A DNA stretch of 64,000 bases, taken from contig ML992502.1 in assembly GCA_010093995.1 (NCBI GenBank), positions 1,458,635 through 1,522,634 on the forward strand, written 5' to 3'. Shown piece by piece: positions 6,040 to 64,000 of this stretch (its first letter is position 1; each line of letters opens with the position of its first letter). The notes beneath the pieces were generated by a model. It saw only the letters and a list, made by a program, of their open reading frames with translations, made no database searches and was not told the DNA's origin. This stretch comes from Elsinoe ampelina (taxonomy: Eukaryota). The position numbers were made by a program, and so were the translations under genes.

Positions 6040-8472
6040 TCATGGTCTCCCGTCATCTAGAATATTTCCAAAGATTCCCAACCGATCCGCAGACCAGTCA
6101 AAGCAAGTTTTGTTCATTAGTTTGCAATCAGCAAAGACACAATCTCGGACGATATCCTCATTGATGTGTGTAGAACCCGTGCACTTGGATGGGAGAGAAA
6201 GGCCGAGAGAAGGGGGGAGTGGAGGGGATTATATACTGCATTTGGTAGGATGGGAGGATATTAGCAGGGGAGGGATGGGGCGGAACAAGGATGAGGGGGT
6301 GAGTCATTAGGCCGGCCATGTGTGCATGAGATGGACGTGGAGTCATAGAGTGAGTATCTGGGTGACTTTGATTGATTGATGCTGTGGAAGACAGGAGACT
6401 AGACTTCGACGCATTGGTAGACTTTCTTGCCGACTGTGATGGTCGTCTTACCGCCGGCTGGGGAGGTGTCCTTGGTGTCTGATCCAGGAGTGGTGCCTGC
6501 GCCGGACGCCGAGCCTGAGCTTGTATCTGTGTTCGCTGAATCGCTGCCGTCCGATTCACTCCCAGAACCGGATGAGGAGTCGGACGAGGAGTCGGATGAG
6601 GAGTCTGAAGAGGAGTCACCTGTGCCGGTGCTACCTCCGGAACCAGTGCTGCCAGTACCGGAGCCACCAGTGCCTGAGCCTGAGCCGCTGTCGCTGGTGC
6701 TGCCGGTATCGGTGCTTCCTGTACCGGCGCTGCCTGTGTCGGTGCTTCCACTACCAGAGCTTCCACTACCAGAACTTCCACTGCTTCCACTCCCAGAGCT
6801 GCCACTCCCAGAGCCCGCACTTCCCCCAGCACCACCACTCGCCGTCCCATTCCCCTTCGGCTTCGGCTCCGCGGTATCAAAACTCTGATAATCCACCGCC
6901 CAATCCGTAGTGCCCCCAAAGTTCAACCCCCTCCACTTCTCCGTCCTGCTATTCTTGACCCCCGTATCCATGTACCCCAACCACCAATTCCCAATCACCG
7001 CAATCTTGGTGTCGCTCTGCGCATCATACAGCCTCCTCGTCCTCGTCCCATTGGCTTCGGCGGCCGCGAACTCCCTCTCCAACTCTGCCTCGGCGATAAC
7101 GCCGCGTTCTTGTGTGCACTGCCCGATAGGTTGCGTGGCGTTGATGGTGTACCTACAGCTCGGACCGGTGCAGGTGGGATCGATCATGCTGAACCCTCTG
7201 GCGTAGGACGTGACGCCGACAATGACCTTGTTGCTCTGCGCGCCGGCCTTGGTGACCAGAGCAAGAGACTCGAGCGTCTCGGTCATGTTGATCATGCTGC
7301 GGAGACAGTCGCCGTTGGGGCAGCCGGCTTGAGACCACTTGCTTCCGTAATCGAAGAGACCATGGTAGTCGTAGGTCATGAAGACGATGTAGTCTACCAC
7401 TTCGGAAATGGGACCGACGGGGAAGCTTTGCAGGTAATGGTAGCCGGCGGGCATGGCGACGGACACGGACTTGGTGGAGAGTTTGGATTTGAGAAGCTTG
7501 AGGAAGGCGAGATAGTTGGTGCCTTCGTCTGCGCCGCCAGGGGGGATGTTGGGCATGTCGGGGGCGCCGGGATATTCCCAGTCGATGTCGACGCCGTCGA
7601 GACCGTGGAGGTTGATGAAGTCGGCGATTTTGCTGGCGGCTGTTTCGCGGTTCTCGGGCTTGACCATGTCGCGGAAGATTTGGTAGGTGGCGGGCTCGGT
7701 GGAGAAGGTCCAGCCTCCGAAGGTGAGGATGCGCTTGTGCTTCTTCATGCCCTTGAAGCGCTCAAATTGTGAAGTGATGGCGGAGATATTGACCTCGAAG
7801 GAAGGAGTGAGAAGGGCAAAGGAGTAGTGAATGTGGTTGTATCGGACTTGAGAGATTTCAGTCACGTCCATGTTCAAGCAAGGACGTTTGGCATTGTCGC
7901 CCTGGAAGTATGCGATTTTCCTGAATGATGCAGGAGCTACATTGTTGTTGGTGATGTTGGTACCGCAGTTGGAAATGCATCCGCTGGTTCCAGGTGCAGC
8001 GCCCGCTGGTGGCAAGGTGCAGTGCTCCGGTGTGATTCCGCAGTATCCAAAAGCACTGCAGCAAGCGTTCAGTGGGCATGGGTTGAGATCCTCGAGCTTC
8101 TGACCAGGCTTGAGTACTGAACCCGCCATGAGCGGACCGCATACAGTGCCAGGTACAGAAGCTGGTAGTGGTGGCTGACCCGGACTGACACACATGTTGA
8201 TGCCAGCCTGGAGGCCACTACATCCGAGCCATCTACCAAATGTGAGAATGTGATCCCTCAAAGTTCCACAACTGTACTTACCCCCATGTGTCCTTGTTGT
8301 ACGTCTCCAGTTGAGCTACGGTCACATTGGACCTCCCAGAGATTGCTCCGCAAGAGTCACCTGGTACGACCTTGTAGACACTGCATGCGGTGCTATTGAC
8401 CTGTCGAGGGTACAACGTGGTCGCTGTAGCAGATGTAGCTAGCACCGCTAGGGATGCCAGAGAGATGAGCAT
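6040..8472 (-). CDS. GH18 chitinase with LysM and CBM18 (hevein) domains (subgroup C, killer-toxin-alpha-like), with Gly/Ser-rich tail
   Basis: Signal peptide from ATG 8472; intron 8233-8281; LysM YKVVPGDSCGAISGRSNVTVAQLETYN; CBM18 CPLNACCSAFGYCGITPEHC; catalytic DGVDIDWEYPG. The 3' end is either stop 6399 or, via an unconfirmed intron, a Cys-containing exon ending 6040. Confidence 0.92.
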
Positions 8473-34872: not shown

Positions 34873-36069
34873 ACCTAATTTATAAAATGCTAAGCTTATG
34901 TAATCTCGTAGCATTTCGGATAGTGCTACGTAATATTAATACGTACTAGATTATTACTAATAAGTGTTAATATCTTTATAGTATAAGATAGTTAGTTATA
35001 ATAAGTTACTTTATACACTTATAGATTTAGCTTATATATAGCTAAATCTATAAACACATGTAATAAGAATAGTAGGCGTAACTCGCGCACCTAGTTTTAT
35101 AGGGCTTTTTAGTTTAAACGAGCTACCTAGTCTTAGTATAGAACTAAAAAAAAGATCTTATAACTTTTTATAGAGGTAGAGAAGAATTTACTACCTAATT
35201 TTATATTAGTAATAGCACGCTAAATAGGCACTAGATATAGAAGATTAATATATTATTATAACTGTCTAAAAGAGCTCTATCTAGTAATATAAGATTTATA
35301 GTAAGAAACACTAGATCTAGCCTAGTAGGCTTACTAGTAAAACTCTATTATTCTCCCTAGACCTCTACCTAGCTCTTTACTTACTATATAGAGGCTTATA
35401 GTATATATAGCCTATATAGGAGGCTAGTTTAGAAGCTACTCTTAGAGTATATACTAGCTATATAGCCTAATATAGCTTCTAGAAGGCGCTATAAGTAGTT
35501 ATTAAAGCCTTATATTAAAGCTATATATATCGTGATATAGAGAATACCTATCTAACTAAATAGTCTATTAGTAGTAGAACTGATTACTATTAAGCCCTAG
35601 GCATAAGCGCTACGTAGAATATTTAAGTATATTATATAAGTAGGACTAGCCGCTACTAAGTGCTACTCTAATACTAAGCTCTTATAATTGCCTCCTTCTC
35701 TAGGAGAGCTATTCTTAGCTCTCGACCGGAAGTGTATAATATATAGTATTATTCGGAAGTAACATAAGTATAAGGTAGTTAAGGCATTTTTATAAAGGCC
35801 TTATATATGTCTTATATAATGTCTAGTAGTAGTAGTCCTAGGAATCTAGTTCCTAGAGAGGCGTTTATTTAGTCGCTATAGCGCTAAAGCTAATTAGTAG
35901 TAACAATATTACTTTTCTTAGAATTCCTAGTAGTATCGTAGGAGATATACGCCTTACGCTAGTAGCTATAACAAAGATATAGTGTACTAGAGGTTAGTCT
36001 ATATAATCTTATTATTCCCTCTTATATTTTTCTTTTCTACCTAAAACACATCTATATTTTATTAACCTC

Positions 36070-55980: not shown

Positions 55981-56794
55981 ATAGTTATACTACTTCTTTC
56001 TCTAGAGAAGTCTACTTAATAGAGTCTATCTCTATAATATTGTTTATACGAGGTATAGGCGCCTCGCTAATAGAGTTCTAGTTGTCTATAGGGTCTAATA
56101 GATTACAACTATAGGGAGTAATTAGAACTATTAAAGCCTTATATTAAAGCTATATATATTATAATATAGAGAATGCCTATCTAACTAAATAGTCTATTAG
56201 TAGTAGAACTAATTACTGTTAAGCTCTAGGCGCAAGCGCTACGTAGAATATTTAAGTACGTTACGTAAGCGGGACTAGCCGCTACTAAGTGCCGCTCTAA
56301 TACTAAGCCCTTATAGTAGTAGAGAAAGTATTTTTAGAATTTACTTCTCTTAAGCTAGTATAGAAGCTATAGAGTAGCTAGAGATATATAGAATATATAT
56401 ATAGGTAGCTAATTAGTAGTACTAGAAGTACGTAAGTATAAAACTATATTATAAGCTTAGTTTAAATACTTCTAAAAATATAGAATTTACTAGTTAAATA
56501 GACTATTCTAAAAGAGCTTTTACTAAGCTATAGCCTACATACGCTTCTAGTACTACTTTAAAATTAAGTGGCAAATTCTCCCCTACCCCCGTAAAAAGTC
56601 GTAAGACCTTTTTTTGGTTCCGCGCCAAGACTGGGTGGCTCGTTTGAACTGAAAAGCCCTGTACCTTCCACCGCGAAGCCCCCTGATCTATAACACCACT
56701 GTCATCGCGGAACACCTCTGCTCGAGGCGTTGTCACCTCTTCACGACTGTCACCCTCATGACTAGGTGGAGGCATCTGCTCGCGTGTAATTTCG

Positions 56795-59445
56795 ATGGAA
56801 GGCGCCGAGATGGGAGATTCGGAGATGTCGGGACTGAGGTCTTCCGTCTCAAAGGTCGCGTCAGAACTTGAAAGCGATGTGACTCTGGACAGCGATGATG
56901 AGATGGAACAGGATTCGTTAGCTGCGATGGACATCATGTTTGACACGTCGCACCCGGTGTTATACGACCGCAAGAATCACCAAGAGATGACTCGGCAGCA
57001 TGAACAATGGTCGCGGTATGCATGAAACACAAGTGGAGGAAGATAGCACTAATGGCAGCATAGATTCGCACAGGCTCACCTCAAAGAACATCTTCGCCAG
57101 CTTGAACCGTTTTCATTCCTACCATCTTTCAAAACCTTGCAGGCGTGGATTCTATGGCAGATCAAAACCAGGAGGGGCAGATTCGAGAGAAAATTAGGAA
57201 GCGTACTGTCAGCAAGATTTGGCATTGTACACAAAGGAACATTCTCAAAGGCTGCCGGCAGCAGCTGACTGAGGCAGAGCGGAAGGTCATGTCGGACGTA
57301 AGTCATACGACTCCGCTACATGGTTCCGCGAGCTGATGAACAAGTGGATTATGAAGGTCCTCCCGCGCAGGAAAATGTGTAGTACGAAAAGACTAGCAAA
57401 GGCTGTGGCAGGCCCCGAGACTGCAGCGGATCTCGTCGTATACCTTTGGGCGCATGATGAAGACGAGATGCATCCAAGGATGAGGCTGCAGCTGTCTCTT
57501 CTACTGCTCATTCTACTATACAATGGATTGCGCCCAGGCGAATTCATGGAATCAGTCCACTACCCGGATTCTAATGAAGGACTTTTGTACGGCGACTTTG
57601 TCTTGATCTTGGTCCGGAATGCTCATCGAGACGATCTACGTTGGCTGCTAGAGGTCCGGCTGCGCAACAGGAAGTGGAGACGACACGACGAAGGCCTCAA
57701 GTCAGTCTGCCAAGAAGTTTCCGCATCCGTGGATTTGCTGACATACGTAGCGAATGGCACCTTCTAAAAATGGATAGTAGGAGGCCTCACCTATGCCCCG
57801 TCAGCCATTACATTGGGTTGGCTCTGGCCGACAATGCACTTGAAGGCATCTCGTCTGTCAGTGAGTTGGAGCGCGTGAGGTTGTCCGATACTGCCGTGAG
57901 CACCAGAATCAGCTGCAAGCCAGAGATGGAGCGCATTCCCGTCATCCGCCGCATGACAGAAGAGACGCGGAGACAAGTCTCGGCAGACAAAATTATTCGA
58001 TATGACGCTTTTAAAGACATGCTACGCAGACTTGGTGCACGCGCGGGCTACACCATCCGATTGACACCATATCAATTCAGACGAGGACATGCAAACATTC
58101 TAGACTCTGCTGTAACGCCTGCAGAACGTCGGCAAAGAATGGGTCACGTAGACGACACTGCGTTGAACGCTTACATCTCTCAGATCTCCGGCGTCGACAC
58201 GCAAGCCATCATTCATGGTGAGGCTCAAGAGCAGGATCTGTTTCACAAAGCCCGCAGTATATCCTCCTGGCAAGATTTCGGTAGTTCTTCGTCGTCAACA
58301 TGGCAAGCGGGGCTGGAAAGGAAAGTCAAGCCAAGGAGAGATGCGTTGAAGCAGTTTCGGGAGGAGTCAGCATCACGACAGACGCATACGATTATCCCTC
58401 TTGACGATGTCAATGAGGAGGGATTGCCTCCTGGCAGCGATGGCCTGATCGTGCCCTTTGAACGACCAGCGCCATCTGTTTACATGCGTGCAATTCTTGA
58501 AGCGGAATCAGATAGGAAGCAAATTGTGGGCTTCATGGATGCCCAACCGAGCAGTCTAGAGGCCCGGATCTCACCCTTTGTCAGCCTGTCATCGACCTTC
58601 CACAATGAAACCTACTATCCTCGCACTAGACCTGATCGCAATGGAGGTTGTCCTCATTGCATGTACAAAGGACCACCAAGGTAACATCGTTCACTCCATA
58701 TCCACCATAAGCTAATTGTGGCAGTTCCAAGCCAAAGAGCTCGGCTGTTACTGCTTTCAAATTGCATCTGCTGCAGTGTCGATTGAAGGCTGACGCAAAG
58801 CTTCTTGATAGCTCGACAAATAATGTTGGACAACCACAGCGATGTGCATGGCAATGTTGTGGATATTTATTCACATTCCAGAAAGGTCCAGAGCATAAGA
58901 AGTTCGACATGGACCATCTCAAACGCCACATCCAGCGCGCTTGTTCGCAAGCCGATGGCCGCATGGCTTGTCTATGGACCGACTGCAAAGAATCCGTCCC
59001 AGACAAGTCAAGGCTCGAGAGCCATCTGGCTGAGGTACATTGCGGCACCTCTAGAGAGCACACCGCCAAAATAGAGTACTGCTTCCAGCACCGGGAGTAC
59101 TACTCATCAAAGGCAGCCTGGTCAGCACACTGCACCCAGCACTTGAAGGATATGGGAGACAAAGACTTATTCTGCGGAATTTTCACTCGGAGGGAGATCG
59201 TCATATGCGCCGGTATCTGTATCTTCTGTATTGGGGATCAGAGCCTGAGCGCAACTCAGCGATTCAGACAATTCTCCGCCTGGGACGACCTGAAGCTGCA
59301 CGTGGAGCAGCACATGCAAAATTTTGCGTCAAGGATTTGCCCGCATCCGCGCTGCACTACCAACCTGAGTACCAAGGGGGACGCGCAAGATCATTTCTGG
59401 AACGTGCACGGGATGCGAGCCTCCAAGACTCAATTGAACAAGTAG
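56795..59445 (+). CDS. DUF3435 tyrosine recombinase (Starship captain-like) with C-terminal Cys/His zinc fingers; apparent -1 frameshift near 57175
   Basis: YNGLRPGEF, LLYGDF, RNRK, HLCPVSHYIGLALADNA, LRRLGARAGY..LTPYQFRRG, RQRMGH...AYISQISGVDTQ; C2H2-like CLWTDC..HLAEVH and CPHPRC..HFWNVH; introns 57016-57063, 57298-57343, 57701-57750, 58681-58724. Confidence 0.88.
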
Positions 59446-59601
59446 CTGAGAGCATGTAGACCATCCTCATGCAACCGTGGCATCACGATTTCAGAGTCTA
59501 ACTGTGTGATTGGACCAATGCCCCAGATAAATAAATGATAAGGGCTACACCCCTATTCTTGCATCGCAGTGTAAGCGGGGTGATTGCTTATTGCTTTAGA
59601 A

Positions 59602-59607
59602 TATATA
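59602..59607 (+). promoter_or_regulatory. TATA-like element about 32 nt upstream of the tRNA 5' exon
   Basis: TATATA at 59602-59607; position only, function untested. Confidence 0.4.
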
Positions 59608-59638
59608 CAACTTTAATCACCCAGTTTCACATAACACC

Positions 59639-59829
59639 GGTTGTAAGTCTCGATCCAGGTGTACCTCCAAATTACGCTATCTGACTTAAGTAAGGCGTGG
59701 TGTAGGGGGTAAGTCTCTTGGCAGAAGAGGTTGCCGCATGACTGACCCCTTCAAAGTAGCATGCGACGTTGTGGAAACCTTGAGTTCAACAACCCCGTCT
59801 CGACCCCGGTTCGATTCCGGGCGCAGCCA
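59639..59829 (+). tRNA. tRNA-His(GUG) with two spliceosomal-type introns (59643-59694, 59709-59756) and one canonical intron (59775-59794)
   Basis: Joined exons give 71 nt: GGTTGCG/CGCAGCC acceptor stem, GTGT/GCAT D-stem, CGACG/CGTCT anticodon stem with loop TTGTGGC, CCCGG-TTCGATT-CCGGG T-arm, discriminator A; A-box TGGTGTAGGGG and B-box GGTTCGATTCC present. Confidence 0.85.
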
Positions 59830-59863
59830 GCTATTAGGCTCCTTCTGAGAAAGAAGGGACAGC

Positions 59864-59869
59864 TTTTTT
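59864..59869 (+). terminator. Putative Pol III terminator (T6) for the tRNA
   Basis: TTTTTT 35 nt downstream of the discriminator, after a short hairpin CCTTCT-GAGAA-AGAAGG. Confidence 0.6.
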
Positions 59870-60033
59870 AAGGGGCCGTCTCCTTCGATCTTGGTGTTTT
59901 GGTGGAGTTGGTCTTTTTTGGCGTAATTAGCGTAAAAAGTGTAAAATTGGCGGCGGCCGAGGCCGAGAGACAGGGCTAAGACACTCTCACGGCTAAGGAA
60001 GGCGGTAAGAAGTCGCGCAAGTGTCGCGTTTAG

Positions 60034-63000
60034 TGTTACTATAGAACGTAAGGTTATAGTACTCTATACCAATAAGATTAGCACACTAAATTAAGTAGTT
60101 ATAGATAATTAATCGCGTATGCTCCTTACTAGTCTCCTCTCTAGTGCTTTACTTACGTAGTTAAAGGATATATACGAGCCTCTAGAGATTACTAGTGACT
60201 ATCGGCTTAATACTCGAGGCTTTAGCCTTAACTAGATTAACTAGAGTATTAAGGTTAATAAGGACTATAAGCGATATATGTAGTGTATAGTAGCCTTCTT
60301 CTACTATCTCTATAAGCGCTTAATAATAACAACTCTAGCTCTTAATAACAGCTATAAGTTACTTACTTACTATAAGCTCTTTATTACTCTCTATATTCTT
60401 GCTACTAGCGCTAGCTATCGGCACATTACTACTAAGGTTAGTATAGTTATCTAATTAGTTAGCTAATTCTATAATGGGAACTATAAACTTATAGCTAGTA
60501 GATAGATGTTAGAGATATATTGTTCTAGCTATAATTCTACATAGTATATATAGTAGTAGTTTCTAACTCTCTATAGAGAGGTTAGAAATTTATTGTTATA
60601 TTTATATAGTATATACTTCTCCTCTATTACTTCTCTATCTTAGAGACATTATACCTACCTTATCTAGATACTCTATTACAATTTAAATTCCTCTTTAAAC
60701 TATAGTTAAGATAGCCTAGGTTAATAGTCTTAATATAGTTAGCTTAATAAAGGACTAACGGATTATCTACTATAGATACTATATCTACTAGCTTAGTAGA
60801 AGCTACCTAATTAGAACCTATTCTCTCTAATGTATCTAAGGAGAAGCTACGTACTACCTAAGAAGAGCTAGCTTAACTCCGCTAGAATAGAGAGTATATA
60901 GAGATCTAGAGAGCTCTTATAATTAAGTATAAAGGACCCCTTTAGAAGAGAACTTATATTAATATATAGGAATAGTAAGAGAAGTCTAATAATAATAATT
61001 AGTTATACTAAGATAGTATCTCTCGAGGAACTCCTAATCTAGATATCTCTCTAGAGATACTTTCTCTTTAGATTAACCTTAAGAAAGTATAAAAGCTAGA
61101 GGTACTAGAGAAACTAAAGAGATATATATACCTTACTAACGTAAAGGTATTTATCTAATTATACTACGCTATCTTTAGAGTCTATAAGTATATCTATCTT
61201 ACTAGTAGAGATTAAGCCTAGTTTATAGCTAGCTATCTAAATAGATTCCTCGCTATAATATAAGAGAGCTATATTAATAATATAAAACCTTAGGCTAAGA
61301 ACTAGAGCTACTTTTAAGAATAGATTAAAGATTGTATTATAGATAAGAGTAACTAAGCTCTAAAATATATCTAACTATTCTATAATAGTGCTTAGAGGTC
61401 GAACTAATTAGTTGCTAAGTTTGCCTAATACCTCGAAAAGTACGCTAAGAAAATTAGTAATACTACTATAGATAAGGCTTAGTTTATAAGCTGCCTCGTT
61501 AACGGCGTAAAGCCTATATATTAATAGAGCTATATAGCGCTCTAAGACTCTCTAAGGGGTAAAGACAAGGCTATCTCCTACTTTACTTATATTAAGAGTG
61601 TATTTAGAAGCTAAGCTATCTCCGAGATAATATATATCTCTTACTACTTTATAGATAAGCTAAAGAGAGGCAACTAGAAATTCTAGAATAACAAAAATAA
61701 GAAAAAAAGAAGGTTTAAAGACTCTACGTCCGGGGTTAATATAACTTCGATACTTTGTTGCCTTAACCTCTTAGAGGTAAAGTGCTATAGGTGTAAGTAA
61801 CTTAGCTATATCTGCCCTAACTACCCTTATAATAAGATAAAAAACTAAATACTCTAGCTATAGACCTCGCCTCTATATAGCTAGGAGTATCTAAAGGAGG
61901 TCCGCTACTAAGCTAACTAAGGATAGATATTTACCTTAGTTAGAAAGGTAAGGCTCTATCTACTAATTACGTAGCTATATCTCTTATAGATTTAGGAGCT
62001 AACATTTGTTTTATTAACTACTATTACGTAAAGGAGAAAGAAGTTCACCTATATACTAATAGCGTAATAAGAGTAAAGTCCCTTAACTAGTATAAGATAC
62101 ACTTATATAGATACTACTATCTTATAGTAGAAGCTACTAACTACTATAGCGTTATAAAGAAGATTCGCTAGTACTTCGAGTTAGTAGAGATAAAGAGATA
62201 TAACTTAGTACTAGGCTAGATATAGCTCTTTAGTATTAACCTAGATATCGATTAGTAAAGCTAGAGGTAGAGACATTACTCTACTAGCGTTAATATAACG
62301 CTCCTAATAGCGGAAGAATTTGCTAAGGAAATGTTAGAGTAGCTATAGTACTATATAGTTTTCTTAAATATAATCTATAAAGATAACACTTTAACGTTAT
62401 AGAGTAGACTTCTAAGCTAGCTCTATAACTTCTTAGATGTATTTAACAATAAGAAAGCTATTACTATACCTCCTCCGGCGCTATATAACTACTTAATCGA
62501 ACTTATTAAAGGGAAGTAACCTCTATAGAAATCTATTTACGCCCTCGTAGAGACAGAGCTAAGTACTCTTAGAGAGTACCTAGCTAAGAATTTAAAGCTA
62601 GGCCGTATTTGCTACTCTACTAGCTCTATAGAGGCTTCTATTCTCTTTATACCTAAGGCTAATAAGTCGCTACGTCTCTATATCGACTACTAAGGTCTTA
62701 ATAACGTCTTAGTAAAGAACTACTATTCTTTGCCCCTTATTACTAAGATACTCGATAGAATCTAGAGGGCTAAGGTATACTTAAAAATAGATCTTAGAGA
62801 TATATACTACTATATCTAGATTAAGGGAGGCAACGAATAAAAGATAGTATTCTAATATAGATATAGATATTTTAAATATATAGTTATACCTTTTAGCCTC
62901 GTAAACGCTTCTACTACCTTCTAGTTATATATTAGCTAATACCTCGATAGCTTAGTTAATTACTACTATATTATCTATATAGACAATATTCTTATCTACT

Positions 63001-63430
63001 TCTAAGATTCGTTATAGTACCGTAGGTATATTAAAGAAGTTCTAGTATAACTTAGGAAGTATCTTCTTTTTATAAAGGCTTCTAAGTACGCCTTTAAAGT
63101 TAAGGAAGTATAGTTTCTAGAATATATTCTAGGCCTCGAGAGTATCTCGATAGAGCTCTAGAGAGTTTAAGCTATTATAGACTAGCTAGAACCTACTTCT
63201 CTAAAAGAACTCTAGATCTTTCTTAGATTTATAAACTTTTACTAATAGTTTATTAATAGCTATATAGAAATAATAAGACCTATAATATAACTACTTATAG
63301 AGAGCAAAAATAGAAAATAGGTAGGTCCTTTCTACTTTACTAATAGTGCTAGGCAATTATTCTAACATCTTAAAGACTACTTTATAACTACTTCTCTTCT
63401 ATAGTTTTTTAACAAAAGTAAGAATATAAG
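60034..63430 (+). mobile_element. Gypsy C: RIPed LTR retrotransposon (5' LTR, gag, protease, RT), interrupted near 63430
   Basis: AT-rich from TGTTAC at 60034; gag knuckle KCYRCK*LSYICPNYP near 61780; protease LIDLGANICFI near 61982; RT LRLYIDY*GLN, IPFSLVNA, YIDNILIY near 62975-63000. Confidence 0.88.
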
Positions 63431-63432
63431 AA

Positions 63433-64000
63433 TTAGAGTAGTTAGTAGGTAGTAGGTATTCTACTACGGGTAGGGTAAGGTATTATTTCTTAGCACAGTA
63501 GGTATAGGTTAAGTAGAGTATTCTTAGTAGTAGGTATAGTAGAGGTTAGGTAGTAGGTATTTCGCGTGCCTAAATACTCTACCTACTATAACCTACGCCT
63601 ATACGTAGGTAGGTATTACGTAAGTAATAGAAGCTTCTCTTAATTCTCTAATATAAGACATTATATAGAATTTAAAATCAGGAAGAATAGTAATAATTAT
63701 AGTCTCTAATTATAGCATCTTATACGCTTAGTTATCGTATTTATAAATAGTTCTATCCTATGCCCTTATAGACAATCTTATACGCTTTACTAGAGGCTTA
63801 TTATTATTAATATTATTGTCCTTCTCGTAATTACTTAGAACAAAGTTACTCTCTTAAGAAGGTAGCTTAAGTAAGTTATCTACCTCGTCTATAGTAGTAT
63901 CTTTATAACTACTATTAATAGTATCTTAATAACTACTAGTAATAACATTGCTACTTAACAAAGAGGGACTTATTATAAGCTTTATAATAATAAGCTACTA
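63433..64000. mobile_element. Probable further RIPed element inserted into Gypsy C (runs off window)
   Basis: Pol similarity stops before RNase H; clustered GTAGG (RIPed GCGGG) short repeats resemble DNA-transposon subterminal motifs. Confidence 0.4.

Follow-up and report, generated by a model that had tools for sequence, protein, structure and literature searches.

Structure of an interrupted tRNA-His gene

A 64,000-nt stretch of DNA from the grapevine fungus Elsinoe ampelina, referred to below as the window, was analysed; all coordinates are positions in this window. At 59639-59829 on the forward strand the window carries a transfer RNA (tRNA) gene, tRNA-His(GTG), which is interrupted by two GT-AG inserts of 52 and 48 nt and by a 20-nt tRNA intron (Table 1). 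The gene is located 180 nt downstream of an expressed recombinase gene of the Starship-captain type and is encoded on the same strand.

Table 1. Features of the tRNA-His locus and of the adjoining recombinase gene. X3, X6 and X7 are sequencing runs described in the text.
Feature	Position	Strand	Remarks
TATATA box	59602-59607	+	Candidate site for TBP/TFIIIB, putative role; first T 37 nt before tRNA position 1
Exon 1	59639-59642	+	GGTT; tRNA positions 1-4, 5' strand of acceptor stem
Insert 1	59643-59694	+	52 nt; GTAAGTCTC...CTGAC...AAG; after tRNA position 4
Exon 2	59695-59708	+	14 nt; tRNA positions 5-18; covered by X3 contig
A-box-like element	59698-59708	+	TGGTGTAGGGG; undivided within exon 2
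Insert 2	59709-59756	+	48 nt; GTAAGTCTC...CTGAC...AAG; after tRNA position 18
Exon 3	59757-59774	+	18 nt; remaining D arm, 5' strand of anticodon stem, anticodon GTG (59771-59773), G37
Canonical tRNA intron	59775-59794	+	20 nt; at 37/38
Exon 4	59795-59829	+	35 nt; positions 38-73: perfect T arm, B box, 3' acceptor strand, A73
B box	59808-59818	+	GGTTCGATTCC; perfect, in exon 4
3' trailer	59830-59863	+	34 nt, unusually long; covered by X3 record 11
T6 run	59864-59869	+	Candidate RNA polymerase III terminator
Recombinase messenger RNA (mRNA)	56709-59461	+	Spliced contigs; coding sequence 57154-59445, 716 aa
Recombinase introns (GT-AG)	57016-57063, 57298-57344, 57701-57750, 58681-58724	+	Skipped in X3, X6 and X7

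The three inserts were removed by coordinates in a script, and the resultant 71 nt of joined exons were submitted to ARAGORN, which called them as tRNA-His(GTG). In the predicted tRNA the acceptor stem is 7 bp long and includes one U-G pair; the D arm consists of a 4-bp stem (two Watson-Crick and two G-U pairs) and a loop of 7 nt, the variable loop is 4 nt long, and the T arm is perfect. When the 20-nt intron was kept, the 91-nt form was called as His(GTG) with a 20-nt intron if the intron option (-i) was used. Without this option the same form gave a Pro(tgg) call, which was rejected because it requires the variable arm to be long and takes no account of the helix formed between anticodon and intron. 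No call was obtained by ARAGORN for the 191-nt genomic form or for a 451-nt form with flanking sequence (two of the four submitted sequences were called), and in the whole window the program found no tRNA. Similarly, Rfam reported no tRNA in the whole window at the gathering score, and at E≤10 it returned just two weak tmRNA-like matches, both on the T arm, in 59300-60200. The Rfam searches were run on genomic DNA; the tRNA call on the joined exons is that of ARAGORN.

Manual reading of the joined exons revealed that U8, A14, G18G19, A21, G15/C48, U33 and G37 are all kept, as are G53-C61, T54-Psi55-C56 and the TTCGA T loop. The discriminator A73 corresponds to the A at 59829, and position -1 is the C at 59638, so that G-1 is not encoded. 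The identity set of eukaryotic tRNA-His consists of A73 together with a G-1 that is not encoded but is added by Thg1. Judged from its sequence, the combination of A73, a C at -1 and the invariant set is the eukaryotic His pattern. The gene is intact though it is flanked by blocks of ~30% GC that resemble the products of repeat-induced point mutation (RIP).

The 20-nt intron was placed after G37 by ARAGORN with the -i option and served as the positive control in a test for bulge-helix-bulge geometry. In this control all four pairs of the central helix and all three pairs on the anticodon-stem side were formed; the ACAA of the intron pairs with U32-U35, the T at position 32 pairs with the A at intron nucleotide -3, and a 3-nt bulge contains the 3' splice site. 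Insert 1 gave none of the four central pairs. Insert 2 gave three of four central pairs, two of three on the exon side and none of three on the intron side. On this predicted geometry, the 20-nt intron is an ordinary substrate of the tRNA splicing endonuclease (SEN) and the two long inserts are not.

A preliminary description of the locus had defined each of these segments, and inspection of the sequence bore out every coordinate. That description had also proposed that the spliced sequence would be called as tRNA-His, that removal of the inserts restores a 7-bp acceptor stem with one G-U pair and a 4-bp D stem while leaving a C27-U43 mismatch, that the 20-nt intron follows position 37 and pairs with the anticodon arm, and that tRNA finders would overlook the genomic form. 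The first two proposals and the position of the 20-nt intron were confirmed by ARAGORN, and its pairing by the geometry test; the last proposal held for both ARAGORN and Rfam.

Splice signals of the two long inserts

Both long inserts have a GTAAGT donor, a CTGAC motif and an AAG acceptor. The branch A is located at 59684 in insert 1 and at 59745 in insert 2, which is 10 nt and 11 nt, respectively, from the end of the insert. The inserts have the features that define a U2-type intron, namely a GTRNGT donor, a CTRAY close to the 3' end, a terminal AG and a length typical of the genome. The four RNA-verified introns of the adjoining recombinase gene are 44-50 nt long, have a CTRAY branch A 8-11 nt from the end, and in one of the four cases likewise end in AAG. 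The tRNA inserts are indistinguishable from these mRNA introns in size and signals.

The frequency of such segments was determined with a strict pattern (GTAAGT, a length of 40-70 nt, and CTRAY with its A 7-14 nt from the terminal AG) in 37,540 nt of window sequence of normal GC content. There were eight matches on the forward strand and none on the reverse strand, and three of the eight represented the two inserts, insert 2 having two possible ends. The pattern has a frequency of 3.4e-6 per start/end pair. Because two segments of the strict pattern fill exactly the two gaps in the cloverleaf, chance is excluded as the explanation for this arrangement.

The 9-mer shared by the inserts, GTAAGTCTC, occurs three times in the window, a count that was reached in 9 of 100 shuffles. 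When aligned to each other, the two inserts gave a score of 27, compared with 25.9 ± 4.9 for shuffled sequences, of which 43% reached 27. No further copy of either insert was found within the window. Introner-like elements, which are multi-copy and occur in Dothideomycetes, were considered as a source: since the inserts are dissimilar to each other and have no other copy within the window, nothing marks them as introner-like.

Transcription of the locus and splicing of insert 2

Sequencing runs were searched with the interval 56500-60100. Of the 23 runs listed, 12 contained part of the stretch, and four (X1, X3, X6 and X7) were analysed as contigs. The RNA nature of a run was judged from its spliced contigs and not from the run records. 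Run X1 gave one gapless contig over 56635-59899 that was identical to the window and skipped no introns; X1 behaves as DNA. Runs X3, X6 and X7 each gave one contig of the adjoining gene from which all four introns had been removed and therefore hold complementary DNA (cDNA).

One contig from X3 (record 11), which is 153 nt long and has a depth of 2.8 and one other letter, joins 59666-59707 to 59756-59866. The joint omits 48 nt bounded by GT..AG (side 42), and the cut is ambiguous by one base, the skipped segment being placed at 59709-59756. The DNA run X1 had no 48-nt joint at insert 2. Since the exact 48-nt GT..AG joint is carried by a cDNA contig, we conclude that transcripts are made from the locus and that insert 2 is removed from them by splicing. 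These data agree with two further claims of the preliminary description, which had likened the inserts to mRNA introns of the window in size and signals, as was seen with the four RNA-verified introns, and had predicted a spliced junction of AGGGG with TAGCAT, as was seen in this one X3 contig.

Still present in this contig are the last 29 nt of insert 1 (59666-59694), the 20-nt intron and the trailer on the 3' side. The contig resembles a nuclear precursor at an intermediate stage of processing, with insert 2 removed and insert 1 and the SEN-type intron still in place; a nuclear precursor would be expected to retain the 20-nt intron and the trailer. RNA ends cannot be deduced from contigs, and the start of record 11 at 59666 and its stop at 59866, in the T run, are uninformative on initiation and termination. 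Contig cover was absent at 59525-59766 in X6 and X7, and at 59525-59645 and beyond 59887 in X3; these gaps are uninformative on expression, on transcript ends and on contamination by DNA.

Promoter and terminator elements

The TATATA sequence at 59602 is the only TATAWA match in 59560-59700. RNA polymerase III (Pol III) genes of fission yeast and the 5S genes of Neurospora have a TATA box near -30. With this spacing, a start set by the TATA box would lie a few nucleotides before exon 1. The box is spaced for exon 1 and not for exon 2, which provides a modest argument that exon 1 is part of the transcript.

The element at 59698-59708, which we take to be an A box, is separated from the B box by 110 bp, a distance longer than usual. 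The B-box motif alone was not significant, with one match in the window compared with 1.26 expected. The T6 run is the only run of at least four T between 59611 and 59880. Reading by eye suggested a possible 7-bp hairpin in the trailer at 59840-59858 on the forward strand, just upstream of the T6 run.

Interpretation of the locus

The locus probably represents a real, transcribed nuclear tRNA-His(GUG) gene that has two U2-type spliceosomal introns and one ordinary tRNA intron at 37/38. A more specific proposal is made tentatively, and we would put its chances at a little short of even: that a functional cytoplasmic tRNA-His is produced from a Pol III transcript that is processed twice by the spliceosome and then by the tRNA endonuclease and ligase, and that the gene travels with, or is targeted by, the captain-type recombinase.

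In the proposed pathway, TATATA-directed transcription would run from ~59632, a few nucleotides before exon 1, to the T6 run at 59864-59869. The spliceosome would then excise intron 2, the step that was seen in RNA, and subsequently intron 1. Removal of the two introns is probably sequential, since an exon 2 of 14 nt leaves hardly any room for two spliceosomes simultaneously; an order in which intron 2 is removed before intron 1 is consistent with the X3 intermediate. The ends would be trimmed by RNase P and RNase Z, and the 20-nt intron would be removed by SEN, the Trl1 ligase and Tpt1; finally, CCA would be added, and Thg1 would add G-1 opposite A73. End trimming, the SEN/Trl1/Tpt1 reactions and the CCA and G-1 additions make up the established eukaryotic (fungal) tRNA pathway. 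Because spliceosomal and SEN introns are present in one RNA, the tRNA would depend on two unrelated splicing machineries.

Several observations weigh against this interpretation. The insert 2 junction was found in one contig of depth 2.8 only, from one of the four runs analysed, and a 48-bp genomic deletion allele in the X3 strain could give the same contig joint. In the contigs of the four runs, neither the junction of GGTT with GCGTGG nor any mature tRNA reads were seen, and the X3 contig retains 59666-59694; since the acceptor stem needs the removal of insert 1, this retention is unfavourable. With the usual distance to the A box, Pol III would initiate within insert 1, and exon 1 would be lost. 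A first exon core of ~4 nt and an internal exon of 14 nt are extreme for spliceosomal splicing, and both insert acceptors are AAG and not the preferred YAG. The cloverleaf has the C27/U43 mismatch and a U3-G70 pair, and at -24.3 kcal/mol it differs from the minimum-free-energy fold of the joined exons, at -29.8 kcal/mol. Minimum-free-energy folds other than the cloverleaf are common for unmodified tRNA sequences, and the fold result was given no weight. Finally, ordinary tRNA-His genes, if present elsewhere in the genome, would make this copy dispensable.

The sole RNA contig begins at 59666 and keeps the 3' 29 nt of intron 1, a result that would also be expected if the locus were a dead-end relic, that is, a former tRNA-His copy that gained two introns and is transcribed and partly spliced but gives no working tRNA. 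Such a copy was perhaps carried with, or trapped beside, the recombinase element, and its transcripts would start in or keep intron 1 and be degraded. This explanation would also accommodate an A-box-directed Pol III start within intron 1, as the usual spacing rules suggest, the C27/U43 mismatch, and the position of the gene next to a mobile-element gene, in a region that is RIP-like and rich in repeats. Opportunistic action of the spliceosome on non-coding transcripts, described in the available part of one source (PMC6726248), is consistent with it. We nevertheless consider a relic unlikely, though it is the main rival explanation. The A and B boxes and the SEN-type geometry are intact, as is every invariant position of the tRNA; the optimal signals of both introns are placed to the nucleotide, and removal of the introns restores the cloverleaf. 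Furthermore, the TATA spacing suits exon 1 and not exon 2, and the start of the contig gives no RNA end.

A slightly smaller probability was assigned to an explanation that differs from the proposed spliced Pol III transcript in the polymerase only. A short TATA-started RNA polymerase II (Pol II) transcript, maybe part of the recombinase element, would be spliced co-transcriptionally, and the tRNA or tRNA-like module would be freed by RNase P and RNase Z; the release of mascRNA from MALAT1 by these two enzymes is the model for such a route. Spliceosomal splicing is normally coupled to Pol II, position 1 is preceded by a TATA box at a distance of 37 nt, and the RNA was found in a run that also yielded a spliced mRNA contig, all of which would favour Pol II. 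In contrast, the intact A and B boxes, the T6 run and the lack of an internal run of at least four T fit a Pol III unit, and fission-yeast U6 is a Pol III transcript that is spliced, as described in the available part of a U6 review (PMC5855946). In addition, the adjoining mRNA contigs, from three runs and three studies, stop at 59454-59461 whereas the DNA contig continues, which hints weakly at a separate transcript for the tRNA. The possibility that the tRNA forms the 3' untranslated region of the recombinase mRNA was rejected on the basis of the same contig ends, again as a weak hint only. Pol III is somewhat favoured over Pol II.

An artefact or coincidence, either a cloverleaf formed by chance or a joint that came from a 48-bp genomic deletion or an assembly error, is very improbable. 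It is true that only one contig, with a depth of 2.8 and one other letter, carries the joint and that the B-box motif is no rarer than chance; however, a pattern with a frequency of ~3.4e-6 per boundary pair would be needed twice, the X1 DNA contig over 56635-59899 is gapless and identical to the window, and the GT..AG ends of the skipped segment are exact, as are those of the four adjoining introns in X3. Least probable of all is that the long inserts are ectopic bulge-helix-bulge introns of the kind that the tRNA endonuclease removes in Cyanidioschyzon merolae, nucleomorphs and archaea, where multiple or ectopic tRNA introns are known (PMC4090602, PMC3728597; available parts), given that both inserts failed the geometry test in which the 20-nt control formed every pair (none of the central pairs in insert 1, none on the intron side in insert 2) and that both carry full GTAAGT/CTGAC/AG signals.

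Comparison with known systems and implications

In the literature, eukaryotic intron classes are kept apart. In the available parts of three sources, tRNA introns are placed at 37/38 and are cut by SEN, and spliceosomal introns are assigned to Pol II transcripts and to a few small nuclear RNA (snRNA) and ribosomal RNA (rRNA) genes (PMC12530127, PMC10275265, PMC4090602). A tRNA gene with two GT-AG introns, one of which is spliced in RNA, breaks this partition. No report of a spliceosomal intron in any tRNA gene was found in a literature search that left most subscription journals outside its coverage, in agreement with the preliminary description, which knew of none. The available text of a 2014 review of tRNA introns contains no occurrence of "spliceosom", and the eukaryotic ectopic introns that it describes are of the endonuclease type only (PMC4090602); in a 2023 tRNA review the spliceosome comes up a single time, by way of contrast (PMC10275265). 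What is new is the host: mRNA-type introns in non-coding RNA genes are known, and a tRNA gene that carries them was not found reported.

The non-coding hosts of spliceosomal introns named in the available part of the U6 review are U6, with up to four introns per gene, U2, U5, U1 and rRNA (PMC5855946); tRNA is not among them. The closest likeness is to fungal U6 snRNA, as in Schizosaccharomyces pombe, which is likewise encoded by a short gene for a structured non-coding RNA, has Pol III promoter elements inside the gene and contains introns that are removed by the spliceosome. According to the same partial source, U6 introns have canonical donor, branch and acceptor sequences, are otherwise unconserved, and can occur several to a gene (PMC5855946). 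The present locus differs from U6 in that the host is a tRNA and in that a SEN-type intron is also present in the gene. The origin proposed for U6 introns, reverse splicing into RNA at the spliceosomal active site, does not apply to a tRNA.

Spliceosomal introns have reportedly also been described in the nuclear rDNA of ascomycetes, by Bhattacharya et al. in 2000, as cited in PMC5855946. The likeness lies in the presence of GT-AG introns in a non-coding, highly structured RNA gene that is not transcribed by Pol II. The difference is that the host there is an rRNA transcribed by RNA polymerase I, whereas here it is a 71-nt tRNA with exons of 4 nt and 14 nt.

Other tRNAs with two or three introns, at sites that include the D arm, are those of C. 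merolae, of cryptophyte and chlorarachniophyte nucleomorphs and of archaea; these genes are also missed by standard finders, and some tRNA introns of Thermoproteales are located at 3/4 (PMC4090602, available part). The introns of those lineages are short or bounded by a bulge-helix-bulge and are cut by the endonuclease, whereas the long inserts described here are of the spliceosomal type. The 20-nt intron is an ordinary member of the canonical eukaryotic 37/38 class, and its coexistence with two GT-AG introns is new.

If the more specific proposal of a functional, spliced tRNA-His is true, this would be the first tRNA known to have spliceosomal introns, and the substrate classes of the two splicing systems would overlap on one 71-nt RNA. 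The locus provides a second independent case, besides U6, of a gene with a Pol III-type promoter that feeds the spliceosome. RNA abundance, RNA structure and proximity to the active site are given as alternative explanations of intron entry into non-coding RNAs in the available part of the U6 review (PMC5855946); a tRNA host would argue for abundance over active-site proximity. Because ARAGORN and Rfam miss this gene, the tRNA complements of intron-rich fungi may be under-counted. More interrupted tRNA genes may be hidden in fungi, skipped by tRNA finders, and similar loci may be dismissed as pseudogenes. The locus also raises the mechanistic questions of how a first exon core of ~4 nt and an internal exon of 14 nt are recognised and whether splicing gates the supply of tRNA-His.

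The neighbouring recombinase gene and its surroundings

The recombinase gene is intact, and its product has a DUF3435 "captain"-type tyrosine recombinase domain (Pfam PF11917, E 3.6e-26) and a C2H2-like region at its C-terminus. The protein is identical to an NCBI hypothetical protein of E. ampelina, and its next relatives, outside the species, are only 31-34% identical. In the available part of one study, 5S rDNA, also a Pol III gene, accounts for 23% of the curated sites at which Starships are inserted (PMC11162782). The present DUF3435 recombinase differs in that it adjoins a tRNA gene and does not lie inside a 5S gene. In the available portions of the Starship literature examined, tRNA genes were mentioned only as bacterial targets or as a scan target.

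The recombinase gene and the tRNA gene are the only genes in a unique island at 56635-59870 (3.2 kb, ~46-50% GC), which is flanked by blocks of ~30% GC and by multi-copy repeats with G>A and C>T variants. No element boundaries were found, nor any terminal direct or inverted repeats bounding the island, and there was no second copy of it within the window, apart from the left-flank repeat: 56547-56663 has an inverted copy, 78% identical, at 35098-35215. Metagenomes were scanned with an exact 22-mer of the T arm and 3' acceptor strand, which gave no matches, and with the largest exon of the recombinase gene, which gave 125 pattern matches and no confirmed relatives.

At the right edge, the tRNA unit ends in T6+A, and a multi-copy repeat (59871-60068) starts one base further on. 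Contigs had loose ends at 59871, where the depth of X1 also jumped. Copies of this repeat in X1 varied mainly by G>A and C>T. RNA contigs covered part of the repeat in X6 (59871-60036) and X7 (59871-59968), each with different upstream sequence, and another copy of the repeat is therefore transcribed elsewhere. At the left edge, exact copies of the 32-nt stretch 56633-56664 are present within unrelated RNA contigs, one of 1866 nt from X3 and one of 793 nt from X7. The surrounding parts of the window (34000-56500 and 60040-64000) consist of blocks of ~26-35% GC beside blocks of 51-60% GC, as is typical of RIP-mutated repeat compartments.

At the other end of the window, 6054-6190 on the reverse strand contains a full-length, intronless U4 snRNA gene (Rfam RF00015, 81.1 bits, model positions 1-138), which was the only Rfam match in the window at the gathering score.

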